Sequence record: SRR20825010_1474
Length of the DNA: 52,948 nt
Reading direction: 5' to 3' (one strand)
Shown: positions 7,890 through 40,275 of the stretch, in pieces
Layout: every line of letters starts with the position of its first letter
How positions within the stretch are numbered: position 1 is the stretch's first letter
Notes under the pieces: generated by a model
The model's database searches: none
What the model was told of the DNA's origin: nothing
Seen by the model: the letters and a program-made list of their open reading frames with translations, nothing else
Translations under genes and position numbers: made by a program

Positions 7890-7931
7890 AGAAAAGATAA
7901 TCCTCCAAGCACAGCGGCCGTACGTAAAGGA

Positions 7932-7965
7932 CCACTGGTCTACACTTAATTTCCATTCGTCTATA
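7932..7965 (+). promoter_or_regulatory. Putative LytTR-type direct-repeat site A
   Basis: CCACTGGTCTACA (7932) and CCATTCGTCTATA (7953), 21-bp period; TACTTTG ends at 8000. Confidence 0.65.
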
Positions 7966-8024
7966 GCATCAAATTCTTTTCTGAGGTTTTCCGTACTTTG
8001 CAGTTCACTTTAATATGCCTAACA

Positions 8025-8426
8025 ATGAACATTCTATTCATAGAAGATGATGCCATAGAAACCATGAAGCTTCATAGAACTCTTGGAAAACTTGGTTTGC
8101 ACCATGATATCATTGAGGCCAAAAACGGAGAAGAAGCACTTGCCATTCTCAATTCCGATGTAAAATTGCCGGATATGATCTTTCTGGATCTAAACATGCC
8201 ACGAATGAGCGGTATAGAGTTCCTTAAAATCTTAAAGGCACATGATAGCTTTCGCTATTTACCTACAGTTGTACTTACAACTTCCCAAAACAGGGCAGAT
8301 TTATTGGAATGTTATAAGATCGGCATTGCCGGTTATGTGATAAAACCCCTTAAATACGAGGATTATGCAGAAAAGCTGCGAAAGGTGTTCGATTATTGGG
8401 AAGCCAATGAACTTGTGAAAAAATAA
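8025..8426 (+). CDS. Single-domain response regulator (Rcp1-like receiver)
   Basis: IEDD, FLDLNMP, LTTS, YVIKP; ATG at 8025 preferred over TTG at 7998. Confidence 0.9.
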   Translation: MNILFIEDDAIETMKLHRTLGKLGLHHDIIEAKNGEEALAILNSDVKLPDMIFLDLNMPRMSGIEFLKILKAHDSFRYLPTVVLTTSQNRADLLECYKIGIAGYVIKPLKYEDYAEKLRKVFDYWEANELVKK

Positions 8427-8501
8427 CACAAAACCGCACATTCACAACAATTTCTTTTATACAGGTAACTGTTTTCCTACATTTAAGCACAAATAAGTAT
8501 C

Positions 8502-9044
8502 ATGAAAGGAATTGTATTTACCGAGTTTTTAGAAATGGTAGAATCCTCCTTCGGTCTGGAGGTAGTAGATGAAATCATTGAGAAATCAAATTTAGAATCT
8601 GAAGGAATCTATACTTCCATAGGCACCTATGAATTTAATGAAATGGTAAGCTTGATAACTAATTTAAGCGATTCCGTTAAGATAGATACCAATACCCTGC
8701 TCCACACCTTTGGGCACTATCTGTTCAGTAGTTTGGGAAAGGCCCACCCAGAGGTGATTAAAAGCTACACCAATCCCCTAGGGCTTCTATACAGTATAGA
8801 AGATCACATCCACGTGCATGTTAAAAAACTATATCCAGATGCCGAATTGCCAAGTTTTAAAATCCTGGAAAAAACTGACCACTCCATTTCCATGATTTAC
8901 TCCTCGTCAAGGGGGTTGTATAGATTGGCACATGGACTAATAGAAAAATGTTTTGAACATTTCAATAGTTCGGCAAAAATATCTTATGAACTTTTGAAAG
9001 ACGATGGTACTGAAGTAAAATTCGATATAGTTCAAAATGGATAG
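8502..9044 (+). CDS. Stand-alone H-NOX (heme NO/O2-binding) protein
   Basis: MKGIVF N-terminus, proximal His region IHVHVKKLYPDAELP, YxSxR motif (YSSSR). Confidence 0.92.
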   Translation: MKGIVFTEFLEMVESSFGLEVVDEIIEKSNLESEGIYTSIGTYEFNEMVSLITNLSDSVKIDTNTLLHTFGHYLFSSLGKAHPEVIKSYTNPLGLLYSIEDHIHVHVKKLYPDAELPSFKILEKTDHSISMIYSSSRGLYRLAHGLIEKCFEHFNSSAKISYELLKDDGTEVKFDIVQNG

Positions 9045-11397
9045 TAAAGAGGTTATTCTTTTAAAAAAGGCCTTGGAGCGACAAAAGAAGGCCCGGATCC
9101 AAGCAGAAAAAATCTTGGAATCCAAATCCCATGAACTATACAATACTCTTCATCACTTAAAACAGGAAAATAGCAAGTTACAACATCTGCTAGATGAAAA
9201 AACTTCTGAATTGGACGGGGCTTTCATCAATATAATAGACCCCTATGTAGTCATGGATTTGAAGTTCAATGTTATTAACATGAACAATTCCGCCAAAGAA
9301 TTTTTGGGATATGACCATACAAAAGAAAAAATTAATTTGGCAAAATTGGTCCATAAGGATTATGTTGATTACACGGTAAAGTCCTTCAATTTTCTTATAG
9401 AAGTAGGAACATTAAAAAATTATAGGGCAAAAATTATTTTAAAGGATAAAACCGAAAAGCATGTACAGATCAACGCCAACATGATCTATGATCCAACTGG
9501 AAAACCTATTGCTGCCCAAGGTATTATAAGGGATATAAGCCAGGAAACAGAAATAAAACATTTACTTGCCGAACAGAAAAAACAACAGGACATTATTGTA
9601 GAAAATTCGCCATTGGGCATTGTGTTAAGTGTGGACGGAAAGATTATAAAGGCTAACCCGAGTTTCTCCAAACTAGTTGGATATTCAGAAAAGGAACTAA
9701 AAAAACTTAAGGTTAGTGATATCAGCGCAACTGGTACTTCTGAGGTCACTCTTGAATTAACCAATAAAATGAATGCTGGCAAATTGGATAATTTTACGAT
9801 TACCAAACAGTATATACGCAAAAACGGAAGTATTCTACACGCCAAAACCAATGTAAGTTCGGTTAAGAATTTTAAAGGGGAAGTGGAATTTCAGGTTGCT
9901 ATGATAGAGGATATTTCAAAAGAACTTGAAGCCGAGGAGCAATTGAAAGCTTCTGAAAACCGACTTTCGACTCTTATCCTAAATCTTCAGACTGGAGTTC
10001 TTTTAGAGGATGAACACAGAAAAATAGCCTTGACCAACCAACTTTTTTGTGACCTTTTCCAGATTAAAGCCTCCCCGAAGCAACTCATAGGTGCAGATTG
10101 CTCTATCTCTGCCGAACAGAGCAAAGAATATTTCAAGGATCCCAAAGCATTTATCAAAAGAATAGATGAAGTACTTAGTAATAAAAAAATGGTTGTTGGT
10201 GATGAACTAGAGATGGTAGATGGCAGGATTTTAGAGCGCGATTATATCCCTATTTTTAATAATGGCCGTTATACTGGCCACCTGTGGACCTATCAAGATG
10301 TCACTCTGCGAAGAACCTATAAAAAGACCCTAGAAGCACAACGGGAAAAGTACAGCAGCATTATCGCAAACATGAACCTGGGACTTATTGAGGTAGACAA
10401 TGATGATGTAGTGCAAATGGTCAATCAAAGTTTTTGCCAAATGAGCGGCTATACCGAGAAAGAACTTCTAGGCCAAAAAGCCGTGAACATTATAAACCCT
10501 TTGGACAGCAAAATTGTACATGAAAAAAACAAAAAAAGACTTAAAGGGCATTCTGATTCCTATGAAGTACAGATAGCCCATAAAAATGGCGAACTTCGGC
10601 ATTGGTTGATAAGTGGAGCACCCAGATATAATGAATCGGGCGCTGTTGTTGGCTCTATAGGAATACACCTAGATATAACGGAACAAAAACACCTTCAACT
10701 CCAGAAAGAGCAACTTTTAAAGGAATTGGAATCCAGTAATAGAGGATTACAGGAATATGCACATATCGTCTCCCATGACCTAAAATCACCTTTGCGCAGC
10801 ATCAGTGCTCTTGCATCATGGGTAAAGGAGGATTACCATGAAATTTTAGACATAAATGGCCAAAACCAACTGCAGATGATGCAAGAGAAAATTGAGGGCA
10901 TGGACAAACTTATCGATGGAATTCTAAATTATTCCAGTATCAATAGTCATAACCTAGAGAACGAAATGGTAGACCTCAATTTGGTTATTCATGAGATACG
11001 TGAAATAATTTTTATTCCGGAACATGTTAATGTGGTAATTATGAATACACTTCCGATATTAAATACGGATAGAACCAAAATGCACCAATTATTCCAAAAC
11101 CTAATAAGCAACGCCGTAATGCATATTCCCCCTAAAGAAGGACTGGTAAAAGTTAGCAGCAAGGAAACAAATGCACATTGGCAATTTAGTATTGAGGACA
11201 ATGGCATAGGTATACCCAAGGAATATCATGAAAAGATTTTTAAAATATTCCAGTCCATTGGGGAAGGAGAACGTTCTACAGGCATAGGACTATCCATTGT
11301 AAAAAAAATAGTAGATTTATATGAAGGTGATATCTGGTTGGAATCCGAGAAAAATAAGGGTACCACATTCTATTTCACTCTAAAGAAAAACGCATGA
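9037..11397 (+). CDS. Cytoplasmic multi-PAS sensor histidine kinase
   Basis: About four PAS/PAC repeats, SHDLKSPL H-box, QNLISNA, DNGIGI, TGIGLSIVK; no TM helix; overlaps the H-NOX stop by 8 nt. Confidence 0.93.
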   Translation: MDSKEVILLKKALERQKKARIQAEKILESKSHELYNTLHHLKQENSKLQHLLDEKTSELDGAFINIIDPYVVMDLKFNVINMNNSAKEFLGYDHTKEKINLAKLVHKDYVDYTVKSFNFLIEVGTLKNYRAKIILKDKTEKHVQINANMIYDPTGKPIAAQGIIRDISQETEIKHLLAEQKKQQDIIVENSPLGIVLSVDGKIIKANPSFSKLVGYSEKELKKLKVSDISATGTSEVTLELTNKMNAGKLDNFTITKQYIRKNGSILHAKTNVSSVKNFKGEVEFQVAMIEDISKELEAEEQLKASENRLSTLILNLQTGVLLEDEHRKIALTNQLFCDLFQIKASPKQLIGADCSISAEQSKEYFKDPKAFIKRIDEVLSNKKMVVGDELEMVDGRILERDYIPIFNNGRYTGHLWTYQDVTLRRTYKKTLEAQREKYSSIIANMNLGLIEVDNDDVVQMVNQSFCQMSGYTEKELLGQKAVNIINPLDSKIVHEKNKKRLKGHSDSYEVQIAHKNGELRHWLISGAPRYNESGAVVGSIGIHLDITEQKHLQLQKEQLLKELESSNRGLQEYAHIVSHDLKSPLRSISALASWVKEDYHEILDINGQNQLQMMQEKIEGMDKLIDGILNYSSINSHNLENEMVDLNLVIHEIREIIFIPEHVNVVIMNTLPILNTDRTKMHQLFQNLISNAVMHIPPKEGLVKVSSKETNAHWQFSIEDNGIGIPKEYHEKIFKIFQSIGEGERSTGIGLSIVKKIVDLYEGDIWLESEKNKGTTFYFTLKKNA

Positions 11398-11714
11398 TTG
11401 AAACACCCAATCTAAATTACATAAAGGAGTTGGCAGGGGAGGATATTGAGTTTGAGAAAAAATTTATCAAAATCATAAAAGAAGAGTTCCCGGAAGAGGT
11501 AGATACATATTTGGGACACATCCAAACAAAAGAGCTTTTAATGGCGGCAGAAACCGTGCATAAATTAAAGCACAAATTTAATGTGCTGGGACTTGAAAAG
11601 GCATACGGATATGCCGTAACCTATGAAGAAAATCTTAGGGAGGGCAATATTAACTTGGATACGGATTTTAGGGCAATACTGCAGAAAATAACCAAATACC
11701 TTACAACTATATAA
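11394..11714 (+). CDS. Hpt phosphotransfer protein
   Basis: 106 aa helical protein with VHKLKHKFNVLG; ATGA overlap with the kinase. Confidence 0.8.
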   Translation: MIETPNLNYIKELAGEDIEFEKKFIKIIKEEFPEEVDTYLGHIQTKELLMAAETVHKLKHKFNVLGLEKAYGYAVTYEENLREGNINLDTDFRAILQKITKYLTTI

Positions 11715-11715
11715 T

Positions 11716-12426
11716 ATGAATTGTATCATCATAGACGACGAAGCTGCAGCAAGGGCAATTGTATCCCAATTGTGTTCCAAGATTCCTGATTTGGATGTTA
11801 TTGAAGAATTTGACAATGCTATTGAAGCCATCAAATTTTTAAACCAACAGAATATTGATGTTGTATTCCTTGACATACATATGCCGGGGTTTTCAGGAGT
11901 CGATTTTGTACAGACCCTAAAAAATTCGCCTAAAATTGTACTGACTACCTCCGACACCAATTTTGCCATAGAGGCCTATGAATACGAGTCCATTGTGGAC
12001 TACTTAGTAAAGCCTATTACCTTGGACCGCTTTCAAAAATCCGTTCAAAAATTAAAGAACATATCACAACAGTCACCCAATAGCCCATCTAAGAACGAAG
12101 GAGGGTCAGCCTCAGGTGGAGATCTTTATATTAATATAGATAGGCGCCTAATTAAATTAAAGCTGGATGGTATTTTGATTATAGAGGCCAAAGGGGATTA
12201 TATTGATATCAAGACAGAAAAAGAAACATATCATGTACATACGACCCTAAAGAAAATTAAGGAGAAATTGCCGGACAAGGTTTTCATGCAAATACATAGG
12301 TCGTTCATCATTAACTTCAACAAAATTATTGATATTGAAGATAATAGTGTCTTAATAGATAAAAACGTTGTCCCTATCAGTCGCTCCAATAGACCTGAAC
12401 TTATGCGAAGGCTAAACCTATTATAG
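11716..12426 (+). CDS. LytTR-family DNA-binding response regulator
   Basis: Receiver (IIDDE, FLDIHMP, DYLVKP) plus LytTR domain (IEAKGDY, FMQIHRSFIIN, VPISR). Confidence 0.95.
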   Translation: MNCIIIDDEAAARAIVSQLCSKIPDLDVIEEFDNAIEAIKFLNQQNIDVVFLDIHMPGFSGVDFVQTLKNSPKIVLTTSDTNFAIEAYEYESIVDYLVKPITLDRFQKSVQKLKNISQQSPNSPSKNEGGSASGGDLYINIDRRLIKLKLDGILIIEAKGDYIDIKTEKETYHVHTTLKKIKEKLPDKVFMQIHRSFIINFNKIIDIEDNSVLIDKNVVPISRSNRPELMRRLNLL

Positions 12427-12474
12427 AAACATATCTATAAAATCTAGGGCTTTCAAGCTCTCGCATAAAACTTT

Positions 12475-14550
12475 TTATTTTGAATTGCTTTCACCTTCCA
12501 ATTGGGCAAAGAACAATGGTTTTTTGGTCAAGGACCATTTTAATTTAAATCCAATTTCCGTAAATTCAAATCCAGCCGCAGTGGCCGATGCTATATTGCT
12601 ATATTTGCCATAAATACTTCCACTAAGACGTTTTCCAAATTGGCGCTGCACGGCAGCTTCAGTTCTAAAAATTGCCGTTTGGGGATCGTTTTCCACTTTT
12701 TGGATTCCAGTAGCCACACTGGCCATATAGTTGGTATGTGCTGATATTGTTCCCCTAATATCCCCAAAGACTTCCCCGGCCTGATATGTTTCAGGACTAA
12801 AATATATGGAAGGTACTTGCTCCCCGAAGGTGATAAACTGGTAATTTAGACCAAACTTTAGTGCCGGTTTTTGTAGGACTGTATAGTACAAAGAGGTAAA
12901 TAAAAGGTTACGGCTATTGTTATCGTTCTGCTGGGTATGCATCAATTGAGTGTACCAGCCCAAATTAATATTGGTCCCTAGGTTGTAATTAAGTCCATAA
13001 TGATTCATAACTATTTCGCGCTCTATTAAATCCGCATTAAAATTCTGCACTTCCCTTTGGTAGCCAAGTTCTAGATTCTGCAATTTAAAAGGCTTTATTT
13101 TTAATTTGGCATCCAAAACCGGTTGTGTGTAAGCTGTTTCCATAAACCTACTGTTATTGAATCCCAATACAGTGGCCATATCTACATTAGGGACCAATTT
13201 GTATCCAAAACCAACCAACACAACATGGGATTCCGCCTTATTCTGGGTAACCGTATTCTCTGTAGTTCGGTACTGGTAGTTTAGTGTGGTTTTAAATTTG
13301 GTGGAAAAAGGTACAAAGGCATTTATTGAATTGGAAAAAGCCACGTTATTTCCATTGTCAAAGGTATAGGCAGCATGTTCTTCAATACTTGGGGTATGCA
13401 AACCATTGAGTTTTTCAATAAAACCTTGTGCATCCTTTTGATTATTAAATATCTTCAAGGTCTGAAAAGCCGCTTTATAAGCAGGCACGATCCGGTCTGA
13501 AGCAAAAAGCGCATTTGCCTTGCCCAAGTTTCCATCAAAAGAAATACTGTCTTTGGAGAGTATGGCGTCATAACTGGATAAACTTGCCTTAAAATCCCCG
13601 GTATACATTCCTAGTGTAGCATTTAATGCCTGAACCCAATTGCCATTCGGATATGCCAGGGCTAGACGGTCTATTTCCTTTCTGGCTTCGGCAAACTTCC
13701 TATTCCATATCAGGGCCTGCACATAACGGTCGAAGGTGTGCTGATTAAGCACTGGATCGCCAAATGACTCCACTTTTTCTTTAGCTTCCAAGGCCATTTT
13801 CAGAGCCATTTTTTCATTTCCGGCTATGTGTTCTGCAAGTGCAATTCCATTTATAGCGGTGATGGAATCTTTAGCGGATGTGGCATATCTTCGGTAGGTA
13901 TTTTTGGCACTATCCACCGCTTTGGTTATCAAATGTATATTGGCCAAATTCAATAATGCCTCTTTGTCCTCTGGAAAATCTTCAAAAACTTCCTGTAGCA
14001 ATTGTTGGCCCATCGCATAATTTTGAGTATTGACATACTCATTGGCGTATCCTAATTTTATATACTTCCTTGAAACCCTGGCACCTTCATTCTCTGCTTG
14101 AAGAGTAATGGCCTTATTTACCCAATACAATGCAGATTTATATTCCTTTAGATTGCTCAAGGTATTGGCATACCCCAACAAAGCCCCAAACTTATCTGGA
14201 TTTTTGGCCACCATATCCTTATATAGGGGTTTGGCCTCCTTAAATTTTCCTGCCCATAAAAGGGATTCTATATAATTTATGGCCACCTCGTAATCATTGG
14301 GGTACTTTTGTTGTAAATCTCCAAATAAAGCATTGGCCGTTATAGGCGCTCCATTTAGTCCTACTGCCCTTCCGTAACAAATCTGTGCGGTCTTGTTTTC
14401 GGAATCCGATTCCAAAAAGGCTTCAAAAAAAATCTCGGCATCTGCAAAATTACCATTCTCCAAAAGTTTAAATCCCTTTTGCATAGATTGCTGGGCCTGT
14501 ATGGAAAATGACAATAATAAGAATGTAGTAATTAATTTATAAATATTCAT
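12475..14550 (-). CDS. Exported TPR protein with probable C-terminal beta-barrel
   Basis: Signal peptide, helical TPR-like repeats to ~aa 380, then amphipathic beta-strands. Confidence 0.75.
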   Translation of the reverse strand: MNIYKLITTFLLLSFSIQAQQSMQKGFKLLENGNFADAEIFFEAFLESDSENKTAQICYGRAVGLNGAPITANALFGDLQQKYPNDYEVAINYIESLLWAGKFKEAKPLYKDMVAKNPDKFGALLGYANTLSNLKEYKSALYWVNKAITLQAENEGARVSRKYIKLGYANEYVNTQNYAMGQQLLQEVFEDFPEDKEALLNLANIHLITKAVDSAKNTYRRYATSAKDSITAINGIALAEHIAGNEKMALKMALEAKEKVESFGDPVLNQHTFDRYVQALIWNRKFAEARKEIDRLALAYPNGNWVQALNATLGMYTGDFKASLSSYDAILSKDSISFDGNLGKANALFASDRIVPAYKAAFQTLKIFNNQKDAQGFIEKLNGLHTPSIEEHAAYTFDNGNNVAFSNSINAFVPFSTKFKTTLNYQYRTTENTVTQNKAESHVVLVGFGYKLVPNVDMATVLGFNNSRFMETAYTQPVLDAKLKIKPFKLQNLELGYQREVQNFNADLIEREIVMNHYGLNYNLGTNINLGWYTQLMHTQQNDNNSRNLLFTSLYYTVLQKPALKFGLNYQFITFGEQVPSIYFSPETYQAGEVFGDIRGTISAHTNYMASVATGIQKVENDPQTAIFRTEAAVQRQFGKRLSGSIYGKYSNIASATAAGFEFTEIGFKLKWSLTKKPLFFAQLEGESNSK

Positions 14551-14659
14551 AGGTTAAGTTTTCTGGATTTTATAGGCTATTTGGTTCGCCTAAGAATCCT
14601 ATTTATTAAGCTTATGTAAAGTTACCCCATACCCTTCTTTACCGGAAGTGCAATACCTG

Positions 14660-14693
14660 CCATTCGTCTACAGCAATTGACGATCCGTCTACA
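14660..14693 (+). promoter_or_regulatory. Putative LytTR-type direct-repeat site B (divergent TPR/flippase region)
   Basis: CCATTCGTCTACA (14660) and CGATCCGTCTACA (14681); GATATTTG ends at 14729; extra copy CCATTCGCCAACA at 14762. Confidence 0.7.
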
Positions 14694-14803
14694 TCGGCCT
14701 TTTCAAAAGGCCTATCATTTAGATATTTGCTTAATAAATGCATAATTATTGACCCTAAATACCATTCGCCAACAGATCAATATAGAAAACCTTTAAAAAA
14801 AAT

Positions 14804-16042
14804 ATGATGACCATATCCAATATAGTAATCAAAAAAATTTCCCCCGCACAGTTGTTTATGGGTAGTGCGCTCCTAGTAAATGGGGGCAACTACCTGTACA
14901 ACTTAGCTTTGGGAAGAATACTGGGACCTGAGGCCTTTGCTGAAGCGGCACTGTTGATCACCCTTTTATTGGTATTATCCTTTATAGGAATGACGTTTCA
15001 ATTGGTAACCGCCAAGTTTGCCGTTTTGCTTTCAGATGAGGATTACTCCCATTTTCAAAACACTATCTATACCTATTCGCTTGCTTTTGGTATGGCCATT
15101 GGAATAATGGTAATTTATTTTGCCCCAGAGCTCCAAATTTTGTTCCAAACCCAAAATGCCTGGATGTTTACCATATTTGGTGTTGGTATCCCCATTTATT
15201 TTTTAATGAGCGTCAATCGCGGTAAATACCAAGGTTTCCAAAACTTTGGAAAACTATCCTTTACCTACCAGACGGAAATGTGGAGCAGATTGATCATCAC
15301 CGTGCTCTTGTTAATTTTACTCCCATTTGAGCCTGCCATCCTGGTGGCGCTTGGAATAGGACTTTCTTTTCTTTTTGGATTGATTCCGATGGATTTTAAA
15401 GAGGTGACAATTTTTACAAAAAATAGACTTTCCAAAACCAACACAAAAAAAGTGCTTCAATTCATAGGACTCACAGCTGGCTATGAACTAACACAGATTA
15501 TTATTAATAATAGTGATATTCTTTTGGTTAAGCATTATTTTGATGCTTTGGAAGCAGGTTTATATGCCTCTTTAGCTTTAATTGGTCGCGTTGTTTATTT
15601 TGTTGCATGGATGTTCGTAATGTTATTGTTGCCAAAAGTGGTCCAAAAACACAAGGACGGAGAGCCCACAGTTCCGGTACTTTCAAAATACATAGGATTT
15701 ATTGGCATGTTATCCCTGGGCATTGTTATGGCTTGCTATCTGTTTCCAGGAACAATAATTAATTTATTGTTCGGAGAGGCCTACCTATCCATGGCCCCTT
15801 TACTATGGCAATATGCCCTAGCTACATCGCTTTTCGCCATCTCCAATATTTTTGCCTACTATTTTCTGTCATTGGACCATTACATACCGGTAATTCTATC
15901 TGGTATTCTAGGGGTTTCCCAGGTGTTGTTGATTGTTCTGTTTCACAGTAGCCTTACTATGATAGTCCAAATTCAGATTATAGTAATGGTCGCGTTACTG
16001 GTGGCTCAGGCACTCTACTTTTTTAGCAAATCCATAAAGTAA
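14804..16042 (+). CDS. Oligosaccharide flippase / polysaccharide biosynthesis membrane protein (Wzx/MOP-like)
   Basis: ~12 TM segments; GRILGPEAF, DILLVKHYF, AGLYASLALIGR. Confidence 0.85.
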   Translation: MMTISNIVIKKISPAQLFMGSALLVNGGNYLYNLALGRILGPEAFAEAALLITLLLVLSFIGMTFQLVTAKFAVLLSDEDYSHFQNTIYTYSLAFGMAIGIMVIYFAPELQILFQTQNAWMFTIFGVGIPIYFLMSVNRGKYQGFQNFGKLSFTYQTEMWSRLIITVLLLILLPFEPAILVALGIGLSFLFGLIPMDFKEVTIFTKNRLSKTNTKKVLQFIGLTAGYELTQIIINNSDILLVKHYFDALEAGLYASLALIGRVVYFVAWMFVMLLLPKVVQKHKDGEPTVPVLSKYIGFIGMLSLGIVMACYLFPGTIINLLFGEAYLSMAPLLWQYALATSLFAISNIFAYYFLSLDHYIPVILSGILGVSQVLLIVLFHSSLTMIVQIQIIVMVALLVAQALYFFSKSIK

Positions 16043-16183
16043 TACTTTGCAATTAAAAATATAATTCTATGGCACCTCTGCCCCCAGAGCGGTTATTTTT
16101 AAGGATAAAGTCTAGACAATGGACCAAAACTAAAAAACAATTAATGGGCAATTTCCTTAAAACAATTTAACCGAACACCTTTA

Positions 16184-16217
16184 CCATTGGTCTATACAAA
16201 AGAGCCAACCACCTCTA
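16184..16217 (+). promoter_or_regulatory. Putative LytTR-type direct-repeat site C
   Basis: CCATTGGTCTATA (16184) and CCAACCACCTCTA (16205); GATATTTG ends at 16253. Confidence 0.6.
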
Positions 16218-16294
16218 ATCATCCATATTTATAATACTTATGGGTGATATTTGTCCCAGAAATTAATTCTAAATCTTAACACAAAACTTGACCT

Positions 16295-17524: not shown

Positions 17525-17547
17525 AATTAAGTTTAAGGTTAAGTGAG

Positions 17548-17589
17548 GAAAGGGGAACGGTTTGGCTAATCGTTCTCCTTTCTATTTTT
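17548..17589. terminator. Hairpin terminator between convergent GT4 and GH genes
   Basis: GAAAGGGGAACGGTT / AATCGTTCTCCTTTC stem followed by TATTTTT; overlaps the GH stop codon. Confidence 0.65.
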
Positions 17590-19119
17590 GGAAGTATTGT
17601 TTAGAAAGTAGAAAGCTTTTTTTGGTTTACCTGCCAAATCCAAGCAACCAAAATATCTTTGGGGTTCCCTTCTCCATGGCCGCTTGCCCACTACTGAAGA
17701 CGGAACCCCTTCAAAATCGTATAAGGTCCAGAAAAGAAAAGGTATTTCGGCCTTCTCTAGAATAGGTTGAAATTCCTCATAATAAGCCGCCTGTTTATCT
17801 TCCGAGTTTAGAAAAGCATTCCACACTCCACTATAGGAAGACCTCCCATATTCCTGAAGTACCGCAGTTTTATCTTTTGGAATTGCGTTTCGCAATTTTT
17901 GATAGGAAGGTATAAAACCCGAAATTTCCCTGTAATAGTGAAAAGAAACAAAATCCACTACCTCTGCCATATTTACCGCAGCCTCCGGACTGGACCATCC
18001 TATGGTGATAGGATGCACCCCGTCCCATTTTTTTATCCGTAGAGCCAGCTCATTTAACCAGGCCATTACATTTTCTTTTCCCCTAGACCCAAAGTCCAAA
18101 TCGGGTTCGTTTTTGAGGTCCCAGGCCAATAAACTAGGATGGTCCTTTAAGGTGGTTACCAACTTTTCAGCATGTGCAAATGTAGCTGTCCAATTGGCAA
18201 CACTATAATCTCCATAAAAATCAAAGAGGGTGATGACCACCTTGAGGCTTTCCTTATCCGCAGCATCCAAAAGGGTCCTGACTTTGGCAAGTCTGTCTTC
18301 ATTTACCCGTGCCTCCCCAAAGTCCGAATACGGAATAAATATACGGACAGTGTTGAGACCCATATCCCTAATAATTCTAAAATCAGACGAAATAACCTTT
18401 TCGTTAAACCGATTTCCAAAAGTATCCCACGGACTGTCCTGTGGATAATAATTGAGTCCTTTTATTTTACTTAATGCCTCCGTATTATCAACGCCAATTA
18501 CGGGCCCTTCCTTCACCTCAGGTTCGGTTATTACCCTAACAAAATGACGTACCCTCCAAAAGCCGTCCTCCAAAAGCATAATTACCTGGAATGTTGCTGT
18601 TTCCCGATATTCCAAGACGGGATTGCCATCTATAAATCCCTTCTTATAAAGTGACACATTCTTATCTAGAAAAGAGATTTGGGTTCCATCGGTGCTATAG
18701 AAATTCAATTTGGGCCAATGTTCCAAAGTGGTTTGTACAAAGGTGGTACCCTTTTCCTTGTTTATGTTGAGTATTTTAAAAAGTTTGGTCCTCGCACTTT
18801 CGGTAAAGTAGTCGGCAATGCCGTATTGATTGTTGGTAGCTAGGGAGGCATTTTTCACGTACCAACCATTAAGATAGTCCCGTTCAACTTTTTCCAAAGT
18901 TTGTGGCTCAATTGGGCGGCCTTCCACGGAAGTGGTATCCCAAACCACCTTGGGAAAATAAATTTGAGCCTTTTCTCCACCTATATGCAGAAGGGTGGAG
19001 CGCTCCGCACCGGTATTGAGATAGGACCAAACCGAACTTATCCCGAAAAGCACCAATGCATTAATGGCCAGGAATGTACCAATCAAAAGAACCCTTAAGA
19101 TGTTTTTATTCCACTTCAT
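17566..19119 (-). CDS. Membrane-anchored clan GH-A glycoside hydrolase (GH5/GH2 TIM-barrel-like)
   Basis: N-terminal TM; KGLNYYP, GLNTVRIF, WDLKNEP (acid/base), SFHYY, LQEYG (nucleophile). Confidence 0.82.
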   Translation of the reverse strand: MKWNKNILRVLLIGTFLAINALVLFGISSVWSYLNTGAERSTLLHIGGEKAQIYFPKVVWDTTSVEGRPIEPQTLEKVERDYLNGWYVKNASLATNNQYGIADYFTESARTKLFKILNINKEKGTTFVQTTLEHWPKLNFYSTDGTQISFLDKNVSLYKKGFIDGNPVLEYRETATFQVIMLLEDGFWRVRHFVRVITEPEVKEGPVIGVDNTEALSKIKGLNYYPQDSPWDTFGNRFNEKVISSDFRIIRDMGLNTVRIFIPYSDFGEARVNEDRLAKVRTLLDAADKESLKVVITLFDFYGDYSVANWTATFAHAEKLVTTLKDHPSLLAWDLKNEPDLDFGSRGKENVMAWLNELALRIKKWDGVHPITIGWSSPEAAVNMAEVVDFVSFHYYREISGFIPSYQKLRNAIPKDKTAVLQEYGRSSYSGVWNAFLNSEDKQAAYYEEFQPILEKAEIPFLFWTLYDFEGVPSSVVGKRPWRREPQRYFGCLDLAGKPKKAFYFLNNTSKNRKEND

Positions 19120-20338
19120 TTTGGGTCAATTTTAAAATCATTTCTTTTTTTACACCTGCGCATTCCACAGCTAATTGATAATCCCCAACGGCATACAGTC
19201 CACTATCAAGTTCAAAGGACCCCAAACCTGATCTGGAATTGGTTTGTTTGACTTCAATTAAATCTCCTTTGCTATCGTAAATTTTTAATTCTATAAGTAG
19301 TCCTTCCGGCACCAATTGCCCCATAAATCCAAGTATCGGCCCTACTGTGACGTTGCGATTATCGTTGGCTAATTTCACGTCAAAATCTATTATGGCACTT
19401 TTAAAATTCAGCTGAAGCTCATTGCTCTTTGCCTCACCCGTAATATACGCAGTAACCCCCCATTCTTCCTCCTCATTAGGGTGCAACATATTGGAGGTTG
19501 CAATTCCGGCCAAGGTAGCCCCCATAGATTTGAGCAATTCACCACGCTTATTTTTAACTATGAAATTAACCAAGGTTCCATCGTTAACCGTATTCCCAAA
19601 CCTATCCGTTATTAGTGAGGTTATAAATCTCACGACTTGATTACCATCCGCAAAATCATGTACGCGTTCAAATCCAATTTTGAAATCAGTACTATTGGAG
19701 GGGGATACAATGCTTGTAAGCTCTTTGGAAGTTACCCCGTTTACCGCCGCAGTAACCAACATACGTCCCGATTTTTCTTCCCCATAAAGTAGGCTATAGG
19801 CAAGACCATCTTTAAGGCGAACTTCAAATACATTGGTTTTGAAATCTATTAGTTGGCTGATAGACACTACAGTACTATCCGGAAGTGGGTTGTCATAATC
19901 GTCGGTTGGGATAATGGTAAGCATGGAATAATCTTTTCCCCCTGCCCTAATACTTCTTGGGCCAAAATAGGTTTCTATTTTGGAGAGATTCCCAATCCGC
20001 GGACCAAGATAAAATTTGTCCGACAACAGTACCTTGGAATTGGATACGAGCTTCCAGTGGTATTCCCCAGCCTCTTCCGTGAATTCTGGGGGTATATTGA
20101 ACATGGCCTTATCATTGATTATTTTAGGCTGAAAAAACAGGGGACCAAAACTATTGTCCAACAAAAGAAAAAGATTTCCCTTTCCTTGAAGTTGGAATTG
20201 GAATTCCAAGCCTTTCCCAACGGTTGAAGGCTGAGAAACAGCCACTACTTCCACCTTCAGATCGGTATTGAGTGCCTCCTCCCTCTCCTTGCAACCAAGG
20301 CCCATCAACAATACCAAAATGTAGAGCTTCCACTTCAT
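19106..20338 (-). CDS. Putative lipoprotein with Ig-like domains
   Basis: Start MKWK at 20338 gives lipobox LMGLG-C; DDYDNPLPDST and DRFGNTVNDGTLVNF resemble invasin/Big-type strands. Confidence 0.65.
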   Translation of the reverse strand: MKWKLYILVLLMGLGCKEREEALNTDLKVEVVAVSQPSTVGKGLEFQFQLQGKGNLFLLLDNSFGPLFFQPKIINDKAMFNIPPEFTEEAGEYHWKLVSNSKVLLSDKFYLGPRIGNLSKIETYFGPRSIRAGGKDYSMLTIIPTDDYDNPLPDSTVVSISQLIDFKTNVFEVRLKDGLAYSLLYGEEKSGRMLVTAAVNGVTSKELTSIVSPSNSTDFKIGFERVHDFADGNQVVRFITSLITDRFGNTVNDGTLVNFIVKNKRGELLKSMGATLAGIATSNMLHPNEEEEWGVTAYITGEAKSNELQLNFKSAIIDFDVKLANDNRNVTVGPILGFMGQLVPEGLLIELKIYDSKGDLIEVKQTNSRSGLGSFELDSGLYAVGDYQLAVECAGVKKEMILKLTQNEVE

Positions 20339-20339
20339 A

Positions 20340-23300
20340 TTATCTTGGATTTCCAATATAACTGTTCAGTTCCAACTTTATAAATTGAAACCCAGATCCC
20401 TTAAGTGGCTGTAGTTGGTCATATGAATGCTGCCGAATCCGTTCTTGAATCACTTTTCCTGCAATTTGCGCATTGGGCAGGCCATTAACAAAACAGTTTT
20501 TTAGACTGCTGTCGACAATCTCCAACCCTCCCAATTCCAAAGTATTGTAATGGAACGACTGTTTGCGCTGTACGCGGACCCCTTCACGTACAAATTTGTG
20601 GTCCACCCAAAGAAGATTTTTCTCAGTATCGTAATAAGAAATCAATAGTAAGGGAATGGTTACTTCCTGAACCCCTGAATTGTACAGTTGTCCCTTAAAC
20701 CCGTTTGGCAACAATTGTAATTCCTGTAGCACCAATCCCTTATAAAGATCGGTATTGGCCACATTTCCCGCACACTGCAAATTGAATTTGGTAGGTTGCT
20801 CCGAAAATTGAACTGGTGTAAATTCATCTGGATTGAAAGTAGGAGGAATAGTGTCTTTGGTCTGTGACCATGCAATGCCTTCAAAATTAATTTTAAAGGT
20901 GGTGGTTTCCATTGGCATTAGCTTATGCTTCATATGAAACTTGGCATTATAATTGGCCAATTCTTTATCGTCATCATTGTACAGGGTGGCCTTTAACACC
21001 ACGTCGGCAGGTACATTGTCCACATTCTGCAACTCGCCGATAACCGAGTAACTACCGTCCATTTTAACCAATTTGGCACTGAGCACCTCCAGAACAGGTT
21101 GTTTCAGTACATCCTCATGATGAGTCTGTTCTGTGGTTATTTTTCGGCGACCATGGTTATAAAAAGTAGTATTGTTGGAAGTAAACAATTGATCAGGGGG
21201 AATGTCGCTATCTAAATAGGAAGGTTCTATGTACCATTTCCCTTGACGTTTTACCAAATTATGATTGTATGTCTTTTGTATTCGTTCCAATGGGGTTACC
21301 CAAAATGTTTCTACTTCCGCCCTAGCATTTTGGTCAGTCTCATTGGATATCTTTATTTGGATTGCGTCCAATTTGGCATACGAGCTTAAGATGCCATCGG
21401 TTACAGATACTTCCTGCATATATTGGGCAATGGAAATTTCCTTTTCTATATCCAAAAATGAGTGTGCTGTCTCAAATTCCTTAAAATCCAAGGCATTATA
21501 ATAGGCCTTAACCACATTTTGTGGAGACCTTTGGGCTGTGTTGTGGATATAAAATTGGTAGATTCCAAATCCGAACAACGATAAGACCAAGAATGCCCAA
21601 AGATGATTTACACTGATAAGAAATGATGGAAATTTCCTATATTCAATAGCATACTTCATATAGTCCGGCTGTTGGATCATTCTTGAATTAAGTATTCGAA
21701 TCCAGAGCAGTTGAATATTGATAACAAAGGCTATCAATACCGTTAGAATAGGCACAATGCCCCACATTAGCTTCAGCCATTGGGCTACATCCTCTTTGGG
21801 AAGAATGGAGGGCACCGGGGGTACGTTTAATTTTTCCCAAACCATAATACCATTTTCCAACTGTTGTAGACGTTGCCATCCACAGAAATAAAGGATGGGG
21901 TCATAGAATTTATCATTACTAAAGATGTACTTTAGGTTATACTTTTCCGGAACGGTCAAAAACTGCTGAAGGGAACCAATACCCTCTACCCCCCTAAATT
22001 TCGAATTCTCCAAACGCTCAATGGCCCTGGTCGTCAATTCCGGTAATCGTCTTGCAGAATGATAATTACCATCAACAGTCATGGCTTTTGTCTGCGACGA
22101 GAGCCATGCCATTTGATCCCCGAAACCCAAGGGCAAATATCGCCACTGGTCGTGTTGGTCCTGATTTAAAAAATTGACGATGGGCAACATTTTTATTTTT
22201 TGGGGTTGGGAAGGTCGAAAATACCCCAAACTCATTGTAAAAATCACCATTAAAAGTATACTACCACCTATTAAAATACTAAGCACCCTATGATAGACAG
22301 CCCCAAATCGTTGCTGAAGTTGAAGTTTTAGATCCCCTTCGGCCAATCTATAGATGAATTCCCCAAAAATAGGTAATGCCATTATGGTAGCCCAAAGGGT
22401 GAAACGGTCCAAGGTCAGAATATTAAAAGCTGTTTCGCCCAATACCTTCAGTGGAATTGGGGTTGTACCCCCAGTGCCCAAAATAGTAAGTACCGATATG
22501 GACAAACCAAAGAACAAATATCGTTTACTGTAAAACCGGTAAAAAATATAGGGCAGAAAGAACAGCAGGATTCCCCAAGGCACAATAAAGAAAACCAGAC
22601 CTGAAGAGGTCACTTCCAAAAAATTATCCCTGGAACCATGTGGAATGGGGATTTGGGTAATAGGGTTCTTTTTGGAATTGACCCAATAGGGCAAAATACA
22701 GACCACTATTAATACCAAAGAGGAAAAACCAAATCCAACTATACGCCAAAAGAGCTGTTTAAAAGATTTGAAGAACACCTTAAAAGTTAATTCCCTATTG
22801 GTAGATACCTTATCACGGGATACATCCATAACGACCATTCCAATTAATGGAAAGACAAAAAATACCATTCCAAAAATAGGTGTAACATGATGAGAGGTAA
22901 CCGTTACGGCAATCAATGATAAGGAAGTGAGTAAATAATGCGACCTCCCCGTTTTGATCCATAGATATATCTCAGGCAGGGCATGCAAAAGAACTGAAAG
23001 TCCAATAATACTGGGTAACTGCCCAAATATATGTAAGGTTTCTATAAAGGTTGTGGAAAATACCGCCATCAAGGAAGTATAGCCTGCTACTTTTTGATTC
23101 CCCGTCATTAAAAGCCCAAAACGGTAAGTACCTGTAATAAAAAGAACAATTCCCAAAAGAGCTACCGTGAACAATCCAAATTTTAAGCCACCAACATAGG
23201 ATAAAAGGGCAATGGATTGATGAACTAAAGGTGGATAACCCTGAACTGTAAACCCCGTATACCATCTATAATCCCATGGTTCGAACCAACTATTGGCATA

Positions 23301-23426
23301 ATGATCGGCAAAAAAAAGATGGATCAAAGCATCATAGGTAGATTCCAATGTAAAAAAAATACTGGCACCGTGAAATGTAAGTCCAAAAAACAGGGCCAAG
23401 ACCAGTAAACTATTGGTGTTTTTCAT
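20340..23426 (-). CDS. Large polytopic membrane protein, GT-C-like N-half with extracytoplasmic C-terminal domains
   Basis: TYD after first TM, WYTG...GYPPL loop, >12 TM segments, then soluble domains with FxLYD-like strands (LKATLYND, LISYYD). Confidence 0.65.
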   Translation of the reverse strand: MKNTNSLLVLALFFGLTFHGASIFFTLESTYDALIHLFFADHYANSWFEPWDYRWYTGFTVQGYPPLVHQSIALLSYVGGLKFGLFTVALLGIVLFITGTYRFGLLMTGNQKVAGYTSLMAVFSTTFIETLHIFGQLPSIIGLSVLLHALPEIYLWIKTGRSHYLLTSLSLIAVTVTSHHVTPIFGMVFFVFPLIGMVVMDVSRDKVSTNRELTFKVFFKSFKQLFWRIVGFGFSSLVLIVVCILPYWVNSKKNPITQIPIPHGSRDNFLEVTSSGLVFFIVPWGILLFFLPYIFYRFYSKRYLFFGLSISVLTILGTGGTTPIPLKVLGETAFNILTLDRFTLWATIMALPIFGEFIYRLAEGDLKLQLQQRFGAVYHRVLSILIGGSILLMVIFTMSLGYFRPSQPQKIKMLPIVNFLNQDQHDQWRYLPLGFGDQMAWLSSQTKAMTVDGNYHSARRLPELTTRAIERLENSKFRGVEGIGSLQQFLTVPEKYNLKYIFSNDKFYDPILYFCGWQRLQQLENGIMVWEKLNVPPVPSILPKEDVAQWLKLMWGIVPILTVLIAFVINIQLLWIRILNSRMIQQPDYMKYAIEYRKFPSFLISVNHLWAFLVLSLFGFGIYQFYIHNTAQRSPQNVVKAYYNALDFKEFETAHSFLDIEKEISIAQYMQEVSVTDGILSSYAKLDAIQIKISNETDQNARAEVETFWVTPLERIQKTYNHNLVKRQGKWYIEPSYLDSDIPPDQLFTSNNTTFYNHGRRKITTEQTHHEDVLKQPVLEVLSAKLVKMDGSYSVIGELQNVDNVPADVVLKATLYNDDDKELANYNAKFHMKHKLMPMETTTFKINFEGIAWSQTKDTIPPTFNPDEFTPVQFSEQPTKFNLQCAGNVANTDLYKGLVLQELQLLPNGFKGQLYNSGVQEVTIPLLLISYYDTEKNLLWVDHKFVREGVRVQRKQSFHYNTLELGGLEIVDSSLKNCFVNGLPNAQIAGKVIQERIRQHSYDQLQPLKGSGFQFIKLELNSYIGNPR

Positions 23427-23509
23427 TAATGGATTGTAACAGAATTATAACAATTTAAAGGTAGCATTATTGTATAAGAGTCTATATATCAGTCATCGCA
23501 TCAAAAAAT

Positions 23510-23543
23510 CCATTCACCTACAGAAAACAGCCACTCAACTTTT
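23510..23543 (+). promoter_or_regulatory. Putative LytTR-type direct-repeat site D (divergent GT-C/REC-GT2 region)
   Basis: CCATTCACCTACA (23510) and CCACTCAACTTTT (23531); consensus -7 TACATTTG at 23573-23580. Confidence 0.6.
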
Positions 23544-23636
23544 GACCATCATTTTAAAGGGTAGCTTGTTGCTACATTTGCTCCAGAAATCACAATAAAC
23601 CAAGCGATTTAAATAAATAAACTTAAAACTTAACCT

Positions 23637-24776
23637 ATGAAAATTTTAGCCATTGACGACCAACAACTAATTCTCCTATCAGTAGAGAAAAGATTATCCG
23701 AACTCGGATATGCAGTAAAAACGGCCAACAGCGGGGCCAGCGGAATAAAGCTATTCGATAGCTACAAACCAGATCTTGTTTTGGTTGACATGAACATGCC
23801 CGATATGTCCGGGATGGAAGTGGTAAAACATATCAGATTTTTCAAAGATTCCAAAACACCTGTGCTGGTCATGTCCGGAAATACTGATGAATCTATAATT
23901 CTTAATAGTTTTATGCTTGGTATTGACGATTATATGAAAAAACCTGTGAGTTTGGATGAAATGACCGCTAGGATCAAAAGAATAGTCGGAAGTCCAAAAA
24001 TACAGGTTAATGGATTGCCAAAAGCAAGTACGCGTATGCTGCAAAAAAATTGTGTGGGTGTAGTAATTCCCTGCTATAATGAGGAGGATAGACTGTCCAG
24101 TGAGCTGTTCCGAAATTTTGCCTTCGAGAATCTTGGTTACCATCTATGTTTTGTAAACGACGGAAGTACGGACAATACTTTGGAAGTATTGGAAGAACTT
24201 AGAAAAGGAAACGAGTCCAACATAAGTATCTATAACTGTGATAAAAATGGTGGAAAAGCGGAAGCGGTCAGACAAGGAATACAGTATTTAATGCAGGACG
24301 AACAATTTGATTATGTAGGGTATCTTGATGCGGATCTTTCTACAGACTTCAGGGATTTTGACGACTTGGTCAAAACCATGGAAACCTCTAAATTTAAAAT
24401 TGTGAGTGGCTCGCGTATCAGCAGAATGGGTGCTGACATCACCAAGGAATCTGCCCGAAAAATAATTAGTAAAACCATAAATATTATTATTCAAAAGATT
24501 CTTGGCATGCCCTTTAAGGATACCCAATGCGGTGCCAAGGTAATGAACAGGGAAATTGCAGCAACTATGTTTGCAAAGAAATTCATAACCAAATGGTTAT
24601 TCGATGTTGAAATATTTATGCGCATGCGTAAGCATTACGGTAAAAAGGAGGCGACGAATATGATCTGCGAACAACCCCTAAAACGCTGGATACATGCAGA
24701 TGGGTCCAAATTATCCATGAAAGATTCCATTAAAATTGTTGGCCAATTGGCCAAGATTGCGATAGTTTACAATTAG
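23637..24776 (+). CDS. Receiver domain-GT2 fusion (polyprenyl-phosphate glycosyltransferase-like)
   Basis: REC (AIDD, LVDMNMP, MSG, YMKKP) plus GT2 (IPCYNEE, VNDGSTD, GKAEAV, DADL, DTQCGAK, WLFDVE). Confidence 0.9.
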   Translation: MKILAIDDQQLILLSVEKRLSELGYAVKTANSGASGIKLFDSYKPDLVLVDMNMPDMSGMEVVKHIRFFKDSKTPVLVMSGNTDESIILNSFMLGIDDYMKKPVSLDEMTARIKRIVGSPKIQVNGLPKASTRMLQKNCVGVVIPCYNEEDRLSSELFRNFAFENLGYHLCFVNDGSTDNTLEVLEELRKGNESNISIYNCDKNGGKAEAVRQGIQYLMQDEQFDYVGYLDADLSTDFRDFDDLVKTMETSKFKIVSGSRISRMGADITKESARKIISKTINIIIQKILGMPFKDTQCGAKVMNREIAATMFAKKFITKWLFDVEIFMRMRKHYGKKEATNMICEQPLKRWIHADGSKLSMKDSIKIVGQLAKIAIVYN

Positions 24777-24780
24777 TAGG

Positions 24781-24825
24781 AAAGGAGGTATCCATAACTT
24801 TATTTTAAATTGAGTTACCTCTTTT
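24781..24825 (+). terminator. Possible terminator hairpin
   Basis: AAAGGAGGTA ... TACCTCTTTT inverted repeat directly after the REC-GT2 stop; large loop. Confidence 0.4.
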
Positions 24826-24891
24826 GGCTTTGAAGATTTTGATATGATCATTTTTTGTTATCTTCAAATCCAAATAACAACAACCAAAATA

Positions 24892-39123: not shown

Positions 39124-39153
39124 TGTTTAACCTTTTTTAAAAATTAATGAACA
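39124..39153. promoter_or_regulatory. Putative CarH-like operator (autoregulatory)
   Basis: TGTTTAA-N16-ATGAACA; right arm overlaps the regulator start codon. Confidence 0.5.
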
Positions 39154-40046: not shown

Positions 40047-40232
40047 CGACCCAAAATAGATATAAATTTGGAATCTTACCGCTAAGGAAGAAATCCTTGC
40101 AACCTTAATTTACCACCTAGGTTGTTAACCCGCTACCCTGGATGGCAGCCCTTTTTTTTAAGTTCTAAAAATTCTATGCAATGCCCATTAAAGGCTTTTT
40201 AAGCTTCAACACCCTAAAATCAAGTTAAATTT

Positions 40233-40275
40233 TGTTTAATATTTAATTAAAAAGATTAAACATTTTGTATCTTGT
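40233..40275 (+). promoter_or_regulatory. Putative CarH-like operator/promoter
   Basis: TGTTTAA-N16-TTAAACA then TTTTGTATCTTGT. Confidence 0.65.

Follow-up and report, generated by a model that had tools for sequence, protein, structure and literature searches.

An H-NOX phosphorelay joined to a GT-C-based glycan cluster in marine flavobacteria: a candidate surface-glycan switch without cyclic di-GMP

Results

Organization of the locus

The window analysed here, the whole 52,948-nucleotide stretch of sequence record SRR20825010_1474, contains a block of twelve genes in which a predicted gas-sensing phosphorelay, built around an H-NOX haem protein, adjoins a set of genes for the synthesis and export of a glycan. 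The limits of the block are approximately 7876..24848, the stretch that a short spacer replaces in the nearest available genome. An earlier examination of the letters alone (the sequence-only reading) had proposed these genes, and all twelve proved real: their open reading frames were verified at the coordinates given below, and their domains were assigned by Pfam and NCBIfam searches.

The signalling half lies on the plus strand and opens with REC1 (8025..8426), a stand-alone receiver (PF00072) that begins at the ATG at 8025 or, alternatively, at a longer TTG start at 7998; its phospho-accepting column is Asp in 60/60 orthologues, all 60 of which also retain the Lys-Pro. Next comes the H-NOX gene (8502..9044), encoding a haem gas sensor predicted to bind nitric oxide (NO). 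The protein matches HNOB (PF07700) with E 1e-40 and a score of 139 bits (cut-off 25.5), and it possesses His104, Pro117, the Y133-x-S135-x-R137 motif and the Gly71/Gly145 hinge, His104 being present in 51/52 orthologues and Tyr133 in 52/52. Leu142 sits five residues past the Arg of the motif; O2-binding H-NOX proteins are marked by a distal Tyr. The closest solved structures are 6BDE and 6BDD (E 2.5e-61), and 6BDD is the H-NOX of Kordia algicida (according to the accessible text of bioRxiv 10.1101/2020.08.21.262071). Downstream are a soluble orthodox histidine kinase (9037..11397), which has no hydrophobic segment and consists of an N-terminal coiled region, three PAS domains, HisKA (His580) and HATPase, and whose length and number of PAS domains differ widely across loci; an Hpt-like phosphotransfer protein (11394..11714), whose His56 is invariant in 48/48 orthologues despite a Pfam match (E 0.019) that falls below the cut-off; and a REC-LytTR transcription regulator (11716..12426; PF00072 and PF04397), whose phospho-accepting Asp is invariant in 49/49.

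In the glycan half, a minus-strand gene (12475..14550) encodes a protein with TPR Pfam matches and a putative C-terminal beta-barrel, probably an outer-membrane export porin of the PgaA/BcsC kind. Matches of its N-terminus to PgaA and BcsC are weak, and a PDB profile search returned TPR matches only, BcsC among them; residues 380-691 are nearest to PgaA_barrel clusters by language-model features (score 0.92), which we treat purely as a lead. There follow, on the plus strand, a Wzx/MOP-type flippase (14804..16042; PF13440, E 1.6e-12), whose Deinococcus homologue carries the annotation 'oligosaccharide flippase', and a GT4 glycosyltransferase (16295..17524; PF00534/PF13692), for which a PDB search indicated no donor sugar.

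Three minus-strand genes come next. The first (17566..19119) encodes a membrane-anchored clan GH-A hydrolase, similar to GH5, GH2 and GH158, with an extra N-terminal domain and one N-terminal hydrophobic segment; its acid/base Glu338 and nucleophile Glu423 are invariant (28/28). The second (19106..20356, probable ATG at 20338) encodes an exported protein of Ig-like repeats (Invasin_D3/Big_1), and is coupled to the hydrolase and GT-C genes on either side. A PDB profile search with this protein gave a single uninformative match. The sequence-only reading had called it a lipoprotein, which agrees with the lipobox-like Cys of the window protein but not with its relatives at large, since only 24 of 44 homologues contain even a loose lipobox pattern.

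The third of these genes (20340..23426) encodes a membrane protein of 1028 residues with a GT-C glycosyltransferase fold over approximately residues 1-535, an NTF2-like domain at 629-737 and beta-sandwich domains thereafter. Its AlphaFold2 model from a 124-row alignment reached a pLDDT of 93.7 (35.5 for the single-sequence fold) and aligned with AglB over 440 residues (Z 19.2, root-mean-square deviation 4.2), followed by STT3B (Z 19.1), ArnT (17.3), ALG12 (15.8), PglB (15.4), Pmt1 (15.2) and AftA (14.9). Foldseek likewise matched the model to GT-C enzymes (E 2e-7), relatives of the protein match PMT_2/PTPS_related, and Asp32 of its first outer loop shows no variation (44/44). The original label of 'GT-C-like' is borne out by the fold. 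A predicted three-chain complex of the GT-C C-terminal part, the hydrolase N-terminal domain and the Ig-like protein scored 0.83, against 0.82 for the control, and is given no weight here.

The block ends on the plus strand with REC-GT2 (23637..24776; PF00072 and PF00535), whose receiver domain is linked to a soluble GT2 belonging to the polyprenyl-phosphate glycosyltransferase type. This enzyme has no hydrophobic segment, and its nearest solved structures are ArnC, GtrB and DPMS. The receiver is present on 57 of the 93 GT2 orthologues that stand beside a GT-C gene, with D7, D8, D51, S80 and K102 intact in all 57. Because the GT2 resembles ArnC, GtrB and DPMS and the 1028-residue protein has a GT-C fold, the predicted core chemistry is that of a lipid-monophosphate GT2/flippase/GT-C system, to which a PgaA-like porin and a hydrolase have been added.

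Homologous loci vary in their accessory genes (L and G numbers denote loci and genomes). At least 20 operon loci additionally encode a FIST protein, and the NO sensor NosP belongs to the FIST family (accessible text of PMC8738867). Nitrate or nitrite reductase-type genes adjoin the H-NOX operon in six loci (L045, L060, L065, L072, L074, L085) and are a possible internal source of NO; in G016 (L188:2451-5524), a second REC1-LytTR-wzx-like copy follows a nitrite reductase cluster. A short GT2-like open reading frame (96-173 residues) often lies 3' of REC-GT2 (L022, L024-L026, L028, L032-L034, L036-L038), and one or two small STAS genes occur upstream of wzx (L018-L036 and many of L105-L167); the window has neither. 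Clusters with STAS genes occur in Bacteroidota, Deinococcus and Actinomycetota, and those of Deinococcus and Actinomycetota also have SpoIIE/PP2C or kinase genes as partners. In 17 loci among L020-L080, the interval from LytTR to the porin gene encodes a DUF6923-repeat cargo protein (~810-950 residues) of the type IX secretion system (T9SS), a possible matrix adhesin, and a distant relative of it adjoins the Acidimicrobiales cluster described below. One distant GT-C relative (P0071, 1007 residues) has a GT4 domain fused at its C-terminus.

A shared promoter repeat

The two halves are tied together by a repeat of the LytTR type. A direct-repeat pair with a 21-bp period lies on the plus strand upstream of the signalling operon (7932..7965), a putative autoregulatory site with a TTTG element 61 nt downstream. 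Further plus-strand copies occur upstream of wzx, in the interval that separates it from the divergent porin gene (14660..14774, with a pair at 14660 and 14681, again of 21-bp period, and a third copy at 14762); upstream of GT4, as a pattern match (16184..16196); and in the divergent GT-C/REC-GT2 intergenic region (23510..23522), where a TACATTTG element begins at 23573, 63 nt downstream. Allowing at most 2 mismatches, the 53-kb window has 8 matches, against 0.84 expected by shuffling; all 8 fall on the plus strand within 7932-23522, and 7 are intergenic.

Because the pattern was derived from the window, it was retested in other genomes: the 7 intergenic copies were turned into a matrix, which was applied to the 300 bases upstream of genes and counted as a match at a score of 12 or above. 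The repeat was detected upstream of REC1 (40/58), GT4 (20/27), GT2 (24/47), STAS (11/26), the T9SS cargo gene (13/16) and wzx (6/27), with no occurrences in any of the corresponding shuffles, and in none of the genes internal to operons (H-NOX 0/51, histidine kinase 0/73, LytTR 0/48, Ig-like 0/30, hydrolase 0/27); for other genes the count was 23/449, versus 7 when shuffled. In a second, named set of loci, those from Flavobacteriales had the repeat before GT2 in 27/55, GT4 in 21/48 and REC1 in 5/5 cases; the Actinomycetota loci of this set did not agree with the Flavobacteriales pattern.

Among 113 sites, the repeat core recurs at -21 (48), +21 (73), +22 (13) and +42 (20). A TTTG element that matches the Bacteroidota -7 box begins 61-63 nt further downstream at 67 of 116 sites, no other offset exceeding 4. 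That the halves share a promoter repeat, as the sequence-only reading maintained, is confirmed: in 21 of 27 genomes the repeat lies upstream of REC1 and also of one or more glycan genes. LytTR sites are described, in the accessible text of PMC6193735, as 9-bp repeats 12 bp apart that lie just 5' of the -35 element and mediate autoactivation; the layout at this locus, with its direct repeats of 21-22 bp by the promoter and its autoregulatory copy, is that of a LytTR regulon, and the REC-LytTR protein is the candidate binder.

Inheritance of the block within the genus

In the genome nearest to the window (G001), the two flanks are 98-99% identical to those of the window and are joined across ~30 unmatched bases. 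Of 25 genomes of the genus, four have the entire ~17-kb block at this site (G163, G174, G155 and, in pieces, G171), and ten show a clean empty site, their flanks 28-135 bases apart. The underlying DNA search scored 12 candidates per genome, and the ten genomes in which it gave neither block, empty site nor scar are not counted as absences. The scar occurs in G172 (L182:3532-4200), where codons 1-58 of REC1 are continued by codons 265-379 of REC-GT2 with the promoter repeats intact; therefore, both halves were lost in a single event at least once. G174 combines another allele of the sensor half (69-86% identity, plus an additional kinase) with a glycan half that is 78-99% identical, and therefore the halves are exchangeable.

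This all-or-none pattern bears out the view that the halves form one unit, and marine flavobacteria very probably retain or lose the relay and the glycan cluster together, as a single co-regulated block. We considered whether the block is a self-mobile island and rejected this: none of its 12 genes is a mobility gene such as an integrase or transposase, no duplicated ends were seen at the junctions, and its GC content (38.8%) shows no shift from that of the flanks (41.8% and 38.8%). Outside the block, the upstream neighbour (4202-5536) is by eye a MaoC-like dehydratase-enoyl-CoA hydratase fusion of a fatty-acid oxidation operon, and the window at 39147-43738 encodes a MerR/B12-binding regulator, a TetR-like protein, an ABC1 kinase and an NAD-binding DUF2867 protein, an ordinary-looking flavobacterial cluster.

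Distribution across the family and phylum

The 1028-residue GT-C protein has matches in 32 of 151 Flavobacteriaceae genomes, two of them remnants, and an H-NOX above the cut-off occurs in 53. Thirty of the 32 GT-C genomes encode H-NOX, as expected of a unit: 27 within 35 kb of the GT-C gene, two on other contigs of fragmented assemblies and one at a distance of 2.3 Mb. (The Fisher p of 5e-15 for this co-occurrence is inflated by kinship, and we do not rely on it.) One of the two GT-C genomes without an H-NOX match, G131, is 73% complete. The adjacency of relay and cluster survives rearrangement in G082 and in two Tenacibaculum loci. As to the remnants, in G041 (L045:10581-11484), the start of the GT-C gene runs into a truncated H-NOX region, and in G103 (L046:7537-9467), a GT-C gene broken by stops and frameshifts lies beside the relay and GT2. 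In a phylum-wide sample, the GT-C protein was found in 8/23 genomes of the family and 0/278 others; it also occurs in metagenome-assembled genomes (MAGs) of Saprospiraceae, with H-NOX within ~14 kb in L099, L102, L103 and L120.

Of the 23 genomes with H-NOX but no GT-C gene, ten have the relay joined to one or other of two further glycan clusters. In seven, a Wzy-type cluster (REC, receiver-sugar transferase, TolC, Wzc-like, Wzy) follows LytTR, and in three, a cluster of GT2, HlyD and TackOD1 surrounds the relay. The Wzy-type clusters (L052, L053, L055, L059, L062, L065, L067) start with a REC that stands alone and a priming sugar transferase to which a receiver is fused, and have the repeat before their lead gene, by eye UDP-glucose-dehydrogenase-like, in 3/4; the others (L063, L066, L068) encode TackOD1, a chitin-synthase-like GT2, an HlyD-like protein and a 505-residue protein lacking a Pfam match, the gene for which is preceded by the repeat in 3/3.

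Pfam searches of the locus gave no match to GGDEF, EAL, HD-GYP or PilZ, in agreement with the sequence-only reading. However, GGDEF was absent from all five family genomes searched (8/14 control genomes being positive), so that the lack of genes for cyclic di-guanosine monophosphate (c-di-GMP) is lineage-wide rather than specific to this locus. Together with the conserved phospho-accepting residues, it fits the proposal that control is by phosphorylation rather than by c-di-GMP.

The glycan core beyond Flavobacteriaceae

Full-length relatives of the GT-C protein occur on Deinococcus megaplasmids and in Acidimicrobiia, Caldilineaceae and Octadecabacter. In the Deinococcus loci, genes for a flippase, a GT2 homologue annotated as 'dolichyl-phosphate beta-glucosyltransferase', GT4, GT-C and GH5 stand beside partner-switch genes of the STAS/PP2C kind, with no annotated H-NOX within 31 kb. 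The Octadecabacter-like (Rhodobacteraceae-like) loci encode GT4, GT2, GT-C and the hydrolase, followed by ManC; one also has a GGDEF-EAL gene, and in one a GtrA/DPMS-TM domain lies in frame with GT4. The hint of mannose offered by ManC rests on two near-identical loci, a homologue being near just two further fetched loci. In an Acidimicrobiales MAG, a hybrid kinase-REC-Hpt, H-NOX, a kinase and a response regulator are encoded immediately after the core, which includes a GT2-GT4 fusion.

Judged from this gene content, the glycan core appears to predate its wiring to the relay, having come under varied regulators in other phyla. In that GT2 and GT4 are fused in distant homologous clusters (L089, L168), the two enzymes may act sequentially on one lipid carrier. 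A plasmid of Deinococcus aquaticus (L168:13860-24209) encodes two GT-C-like paralogues, flanked by GGDEF and HD-domain genes.

Discussion

A proposed mechanism

From the parts and their folds, the intact catalytic and phospho-acceptor residues, the co-inheritance of the halves and the conservation, period and position of the repeat, we infer a course of events in which NO is the signal and phosphorylation sets the output. The kinase would autophosphorylate, and phosphate would pass from His580 to REC1 and/or to His56 of the Hpt protein and on to REC-LytTR; where a receiver is fused to the GT2, it could also receive phosphate, which would make the first enzyme of the pathway a further point of control. 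Phosphorylated LytTR would bind the 21-bp repeats and activate its own operon, wzx, GT4 and REC-GT2, and because activation of its own operon is positive feedback, the switch should be sharp. In the systems that have been studied, the kinase is inhibited by NO-bound H-NOX (accessible text of PMC8738867 and PMC12369376); hence, NO most likely turns the glycan off, with high NO giving the off state and low NO the on state.

Once the genes are expressed, GT2 would load a sugar from its nucleotide donor onto undecaprenyl phosphate, GT4 would probably extend it, and the Wzx-type flippase would move the lipid-monophosphate sugar across the inner membrane. On the periplasmic side, the GT-C protein would transfer the flipped sugar onto a growing glycan, its NTF2-like and beta-sandwich domains and the Ig-like protein perhaps forming a scaffold; the anchored GH-A hydrolase may trim or clear the chain, and the TPR-barrel protein may export it. 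The identity of the sugar, its acceptor and the export of a polymer are thus, like the order of phosphotransfer, predictions from the parts.

Several observations weigh against parts of this account. The link between the halves runs in one direction only: 23 of the 53 H-NOX genomes are without a GT-C gene, so that the cluster implies the relay but the relay does not imply the cluster. The sequence-only reading had regarded independent occurrence of the halves as evidence against a unit, and to this extent it is found, the relay occurring without this cluster in these 23 genomes and the core falling under other regulators in other phyla, but genomes with GT-C nearly always encode H-NOX. G138 has its two halves separated by 2.3 Mb, and G008 (90% complete) keeps relay, cluster and repeats without an H-NOX gene. 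The receiver of the GT2, which had been offered as an independent link, is intact wherever it occurs but is missing from 36/93 orthologues, and enzyme-level control is therefore optional. The Deinococcus and Actinomycetota loci yielded no homologue of the porin. Alpha links would be expected from an inverting GT2 followed by an inverting GT-C, as from a GT4 of the retaining type, while clan GH-A enzymes mostly cleave beta links, which is a puzzle.

The repeat is open to similar objections. It is nearly absent from Saprospiraceae/Chitinophagales clusters (GT2 1/16, GT4 1/12), and every intergenic copy is oriented towards REC1, wzx, GT4 or REC-GT2 rather than towards the divergent porin gene and GT-C operon. 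Genomes that have the block and genomes that lack it both contain many matches to a looser version of the pattern (11-30, versus 3-12 in controls), and each genome has 5-12 LytTR matches; because there are so many LytTR matches and loose sites, the LytTR protein of the locus is only a candidate for the repeat binder. G016 possesses the cluster but no repeat in the locus; since a 77%-identical LytTR is encoded elsewhere in its genome, we treat it as an exception and not as support.

Alternative explanations

If the halves were two independent operons, adjacent by chance, the frequent occurrence of the relay without this cluster (23/53) would need no further account; yet all-or-none inheritance, the deletion scar, the periodic shared repeat and conservation across genera and phyla largely refute this, and we give it hardly any credence. 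A unit that is real but whose kinase is driven by something other than NO, whether the PAS domains, O2 or redox state or FIST, or whose repeat is read by another LytTR paralogue, would be in keeping with the retention of relay and repeats in G008, which lacks the H-NOX gene, with the variable length and PAS number of the kinase, and with the many LytTR paralogues and loose sites. But the haem residues are near-invariant, H-NOX stays adjacent even in the Actinomycetota MAG, and strict-pattern matches are concentrated inside the locus in three module genomes (3/3, 3/5 and 1/4); this explanation is improbable, and control of the unit by NO through H-NOX and LytTR seems to us likely.

The nature of the product is a separate matter. 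With the same regulation, the glycan genes could decorate an acceptor made elsewhere, such as lipopolysaccharide or O-antigen, capsule, exopolysaccharide (EPS) or periplasmic glucan, in the style of the Gtr, Arn and Scc systems, and porin and hydrolase would then serve that acceptor. GT2, flippase and GT-C are indeed the trio by which multi-component transmembrane glycosylation systems are defined (accessible text of PMC11754754 and PMC13390465), the locus is without an initiating phosphoglycosyl transferase, Wzy, Wzz/Wzc or a processive synthase, and decoration would account for a beta-cutting hydrolase beside transferases predicted to form alpha links. Still, the core is self-contained and has its own hydrolase across at least four phyla of very different envelopes, and the clusters of Bacteroidota add a dedicated PgaA-like porin, when classical modification systems have neither porin nor hydrolase; we consider decoration a minority possibility of some weight. 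Were the GT-C protein instead an oligosaccharyl- or protein glycosyltransferase, its target could be the Ig-like protein or the co-regulated DUF6923 cargo. Its top folds include the protein-modifying AglB/STT3, PglB and Pmt, and the 17 loci with the cargo gene, mostly with the repeat upstream, would fit; but lipid- and glycan-modifying GT-Cs score nearly as high (ArnT, ALG12 and AftA, above), the window and many loci lack the T9SS gene, and TPR-porin and hydrolase better fit polymer export, all of which leaves protein glycosylation rather unlikely.

Taking these considerations together, we think the odds are slightly in favour of the complete model, a two-level phosphorelay switch for a cell-surface or secreted glycan that operates without c-di-GMP. 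A broader reading is tentative, and as a whole we would sooner doubt it than assert it. It would have GT2 and GT4 build a unit on a lipid monophosphate, a Wzx-type protein flip it, an oligosaccharyltransferase-like GT-C polymerise it and a PgaA-like porin export the chain, with GT-C polymerisation standing in for Wzy or a processive synthase; this core would be common to Bacteroidota, Deinococcus, Actinomycetota and Rhodobacteraceae-like hosts, and the autoactivating NO/H-NOX-LytTR relay would be a general biofilm switch of Flavobacteriaceae that drives at least three polysaccharide cassettes.

Significance

The locus is real and conserved, and is apparently undescribed: no published description of it, of its glycan core or of the REC-GT2 fusion was found in literature coverage that ended short of subscription papers and bioRxiv supplements. 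The sequence-only reading had likewise known of none, which holds for the locus, but it had missed that an H-NOX phosphorelay free of c-di-GMP is already published for Vibrio fischeri.

Marine particles and the surfaces of algae are dominated by Flavobacteriaceae, a family in which none of five genomes examined for GGDEF proteins had one. In such organisms, the locus makes the switching of the biofilm matrix testable, in that it supplies a sensor, a regulator, the exact position of a candidate operator and three alternative polysaccharide outputs, and nature provides near-isogenic pairs of genomes, one having the block and the other lacking it. The GT-C cluster is present in roughly one in five of the sampled family genomes (32/151), and the GT2-GT4-Wzx-GT-C-hydrolase core is a putative glycan pathway of at least four phyla. 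If GT-C does polymerise lipid-monophosphate donors, this would be a new route beyond the four textbook mechanisms of EPS synthesis.

Comparison with known systems

The sequence-only reading had seen in the glycan genes a parts list like that of Pel. The locus does share with the PNAG (PgaABCD), cellulose (Bcs), alginate and Pel systems a TPR and beta-barrel porin (the barrel by language-model features) and a periplasmic hydrolase, and with Pel in particular a GT4 and a Wzx-like protein. This resemblance is superficial. No Pel-named Pfam or NCBIfam model was matched (E<=0.05/0.01), although the libraries used presumably contain such models, no gene of the PelD/PelE type lies in the locus, the hydrolase belongs to clan GH-A, and GT-C chemistry is foreign to Pel. 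Unlike the synthase-dependent systems, Pel among them, the locus has no processive membrane GT2 and no c-di-GMP receptor, but rather a GT-C and a lipid-phosphate-sugar synthase; a processive synthase was rejected as an assignment, the GT2 lacking hydrophobic segments and being nearest to ArnC, GtrB and DPMS. Wzx/Wzy-dependent EPS was likewise rejected, since a search confined to the locus found no initiating transferase, Wzy, Wzz/Wzc or OPX.

Closer parallels are offered by the transmembrane glycosylation systems GtrABC, ArnC/ArnT and SccN/SccM/SccP/SccQ of Streptococcus mutans, which similarly gather a GT-A enzyme for polyprenyl-phosphate sugar, a flippase and a GT-C in one cluster; GacI/GacK/GacL of Group A Streptococcus is another such system. 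Unlike these, the present cluster also has a TPR-porin, an Ig-like protein, an anchored hydrolase of clan GH-A and a GT4 that is found fused to the GT2 in some phyla, its GT-C has a 400-residue periplasmic extension, and its GT2 bears a phospho-receiver.

On the sensory side, the closest solved relative is the H-NOX of Kordia algicida, whose hinge, unlike that of the window protein with Gly at position 71, has Ala; Kordia loci (L131) have the same relay beside GT-C genes. Hespen et al. (2018) reportedly studied this H-NOX and its kinase in vitro, with no link drawn to glycan genes.

The nearest regulatory counterpart is found in V. fischeri, where SypG is a sigma-54 activator. There, HnoX and HahK act through the Hpt domain of SypF, or LuxU, on SypG (and SypE) and so on the syp polysaccharide, with no c-di-GMP step described in the accessible text (PMC12369376, PMC8738867). 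As in that pathway, H-NOX is co-transcribed with a soluble kinase, an Hpt relay leads to a DNA-binding response regulator of polysaccharide genes without a c-di-GMP step, and inhibition by NO is expected, a function that here is predicted. The locus does not belong to the Syp pathway itself, having no hybrid kinase receiver, SypG-type activator or syp genes; it has an orthodox kinase, separate REC and Hpt genes and a LytTR regulator. Also unlike the HnoX-HahK-Syp pathway, sensor and glycan genes are here one heritable block, with a receiver on the first enzyme and a machine based on GT-C.

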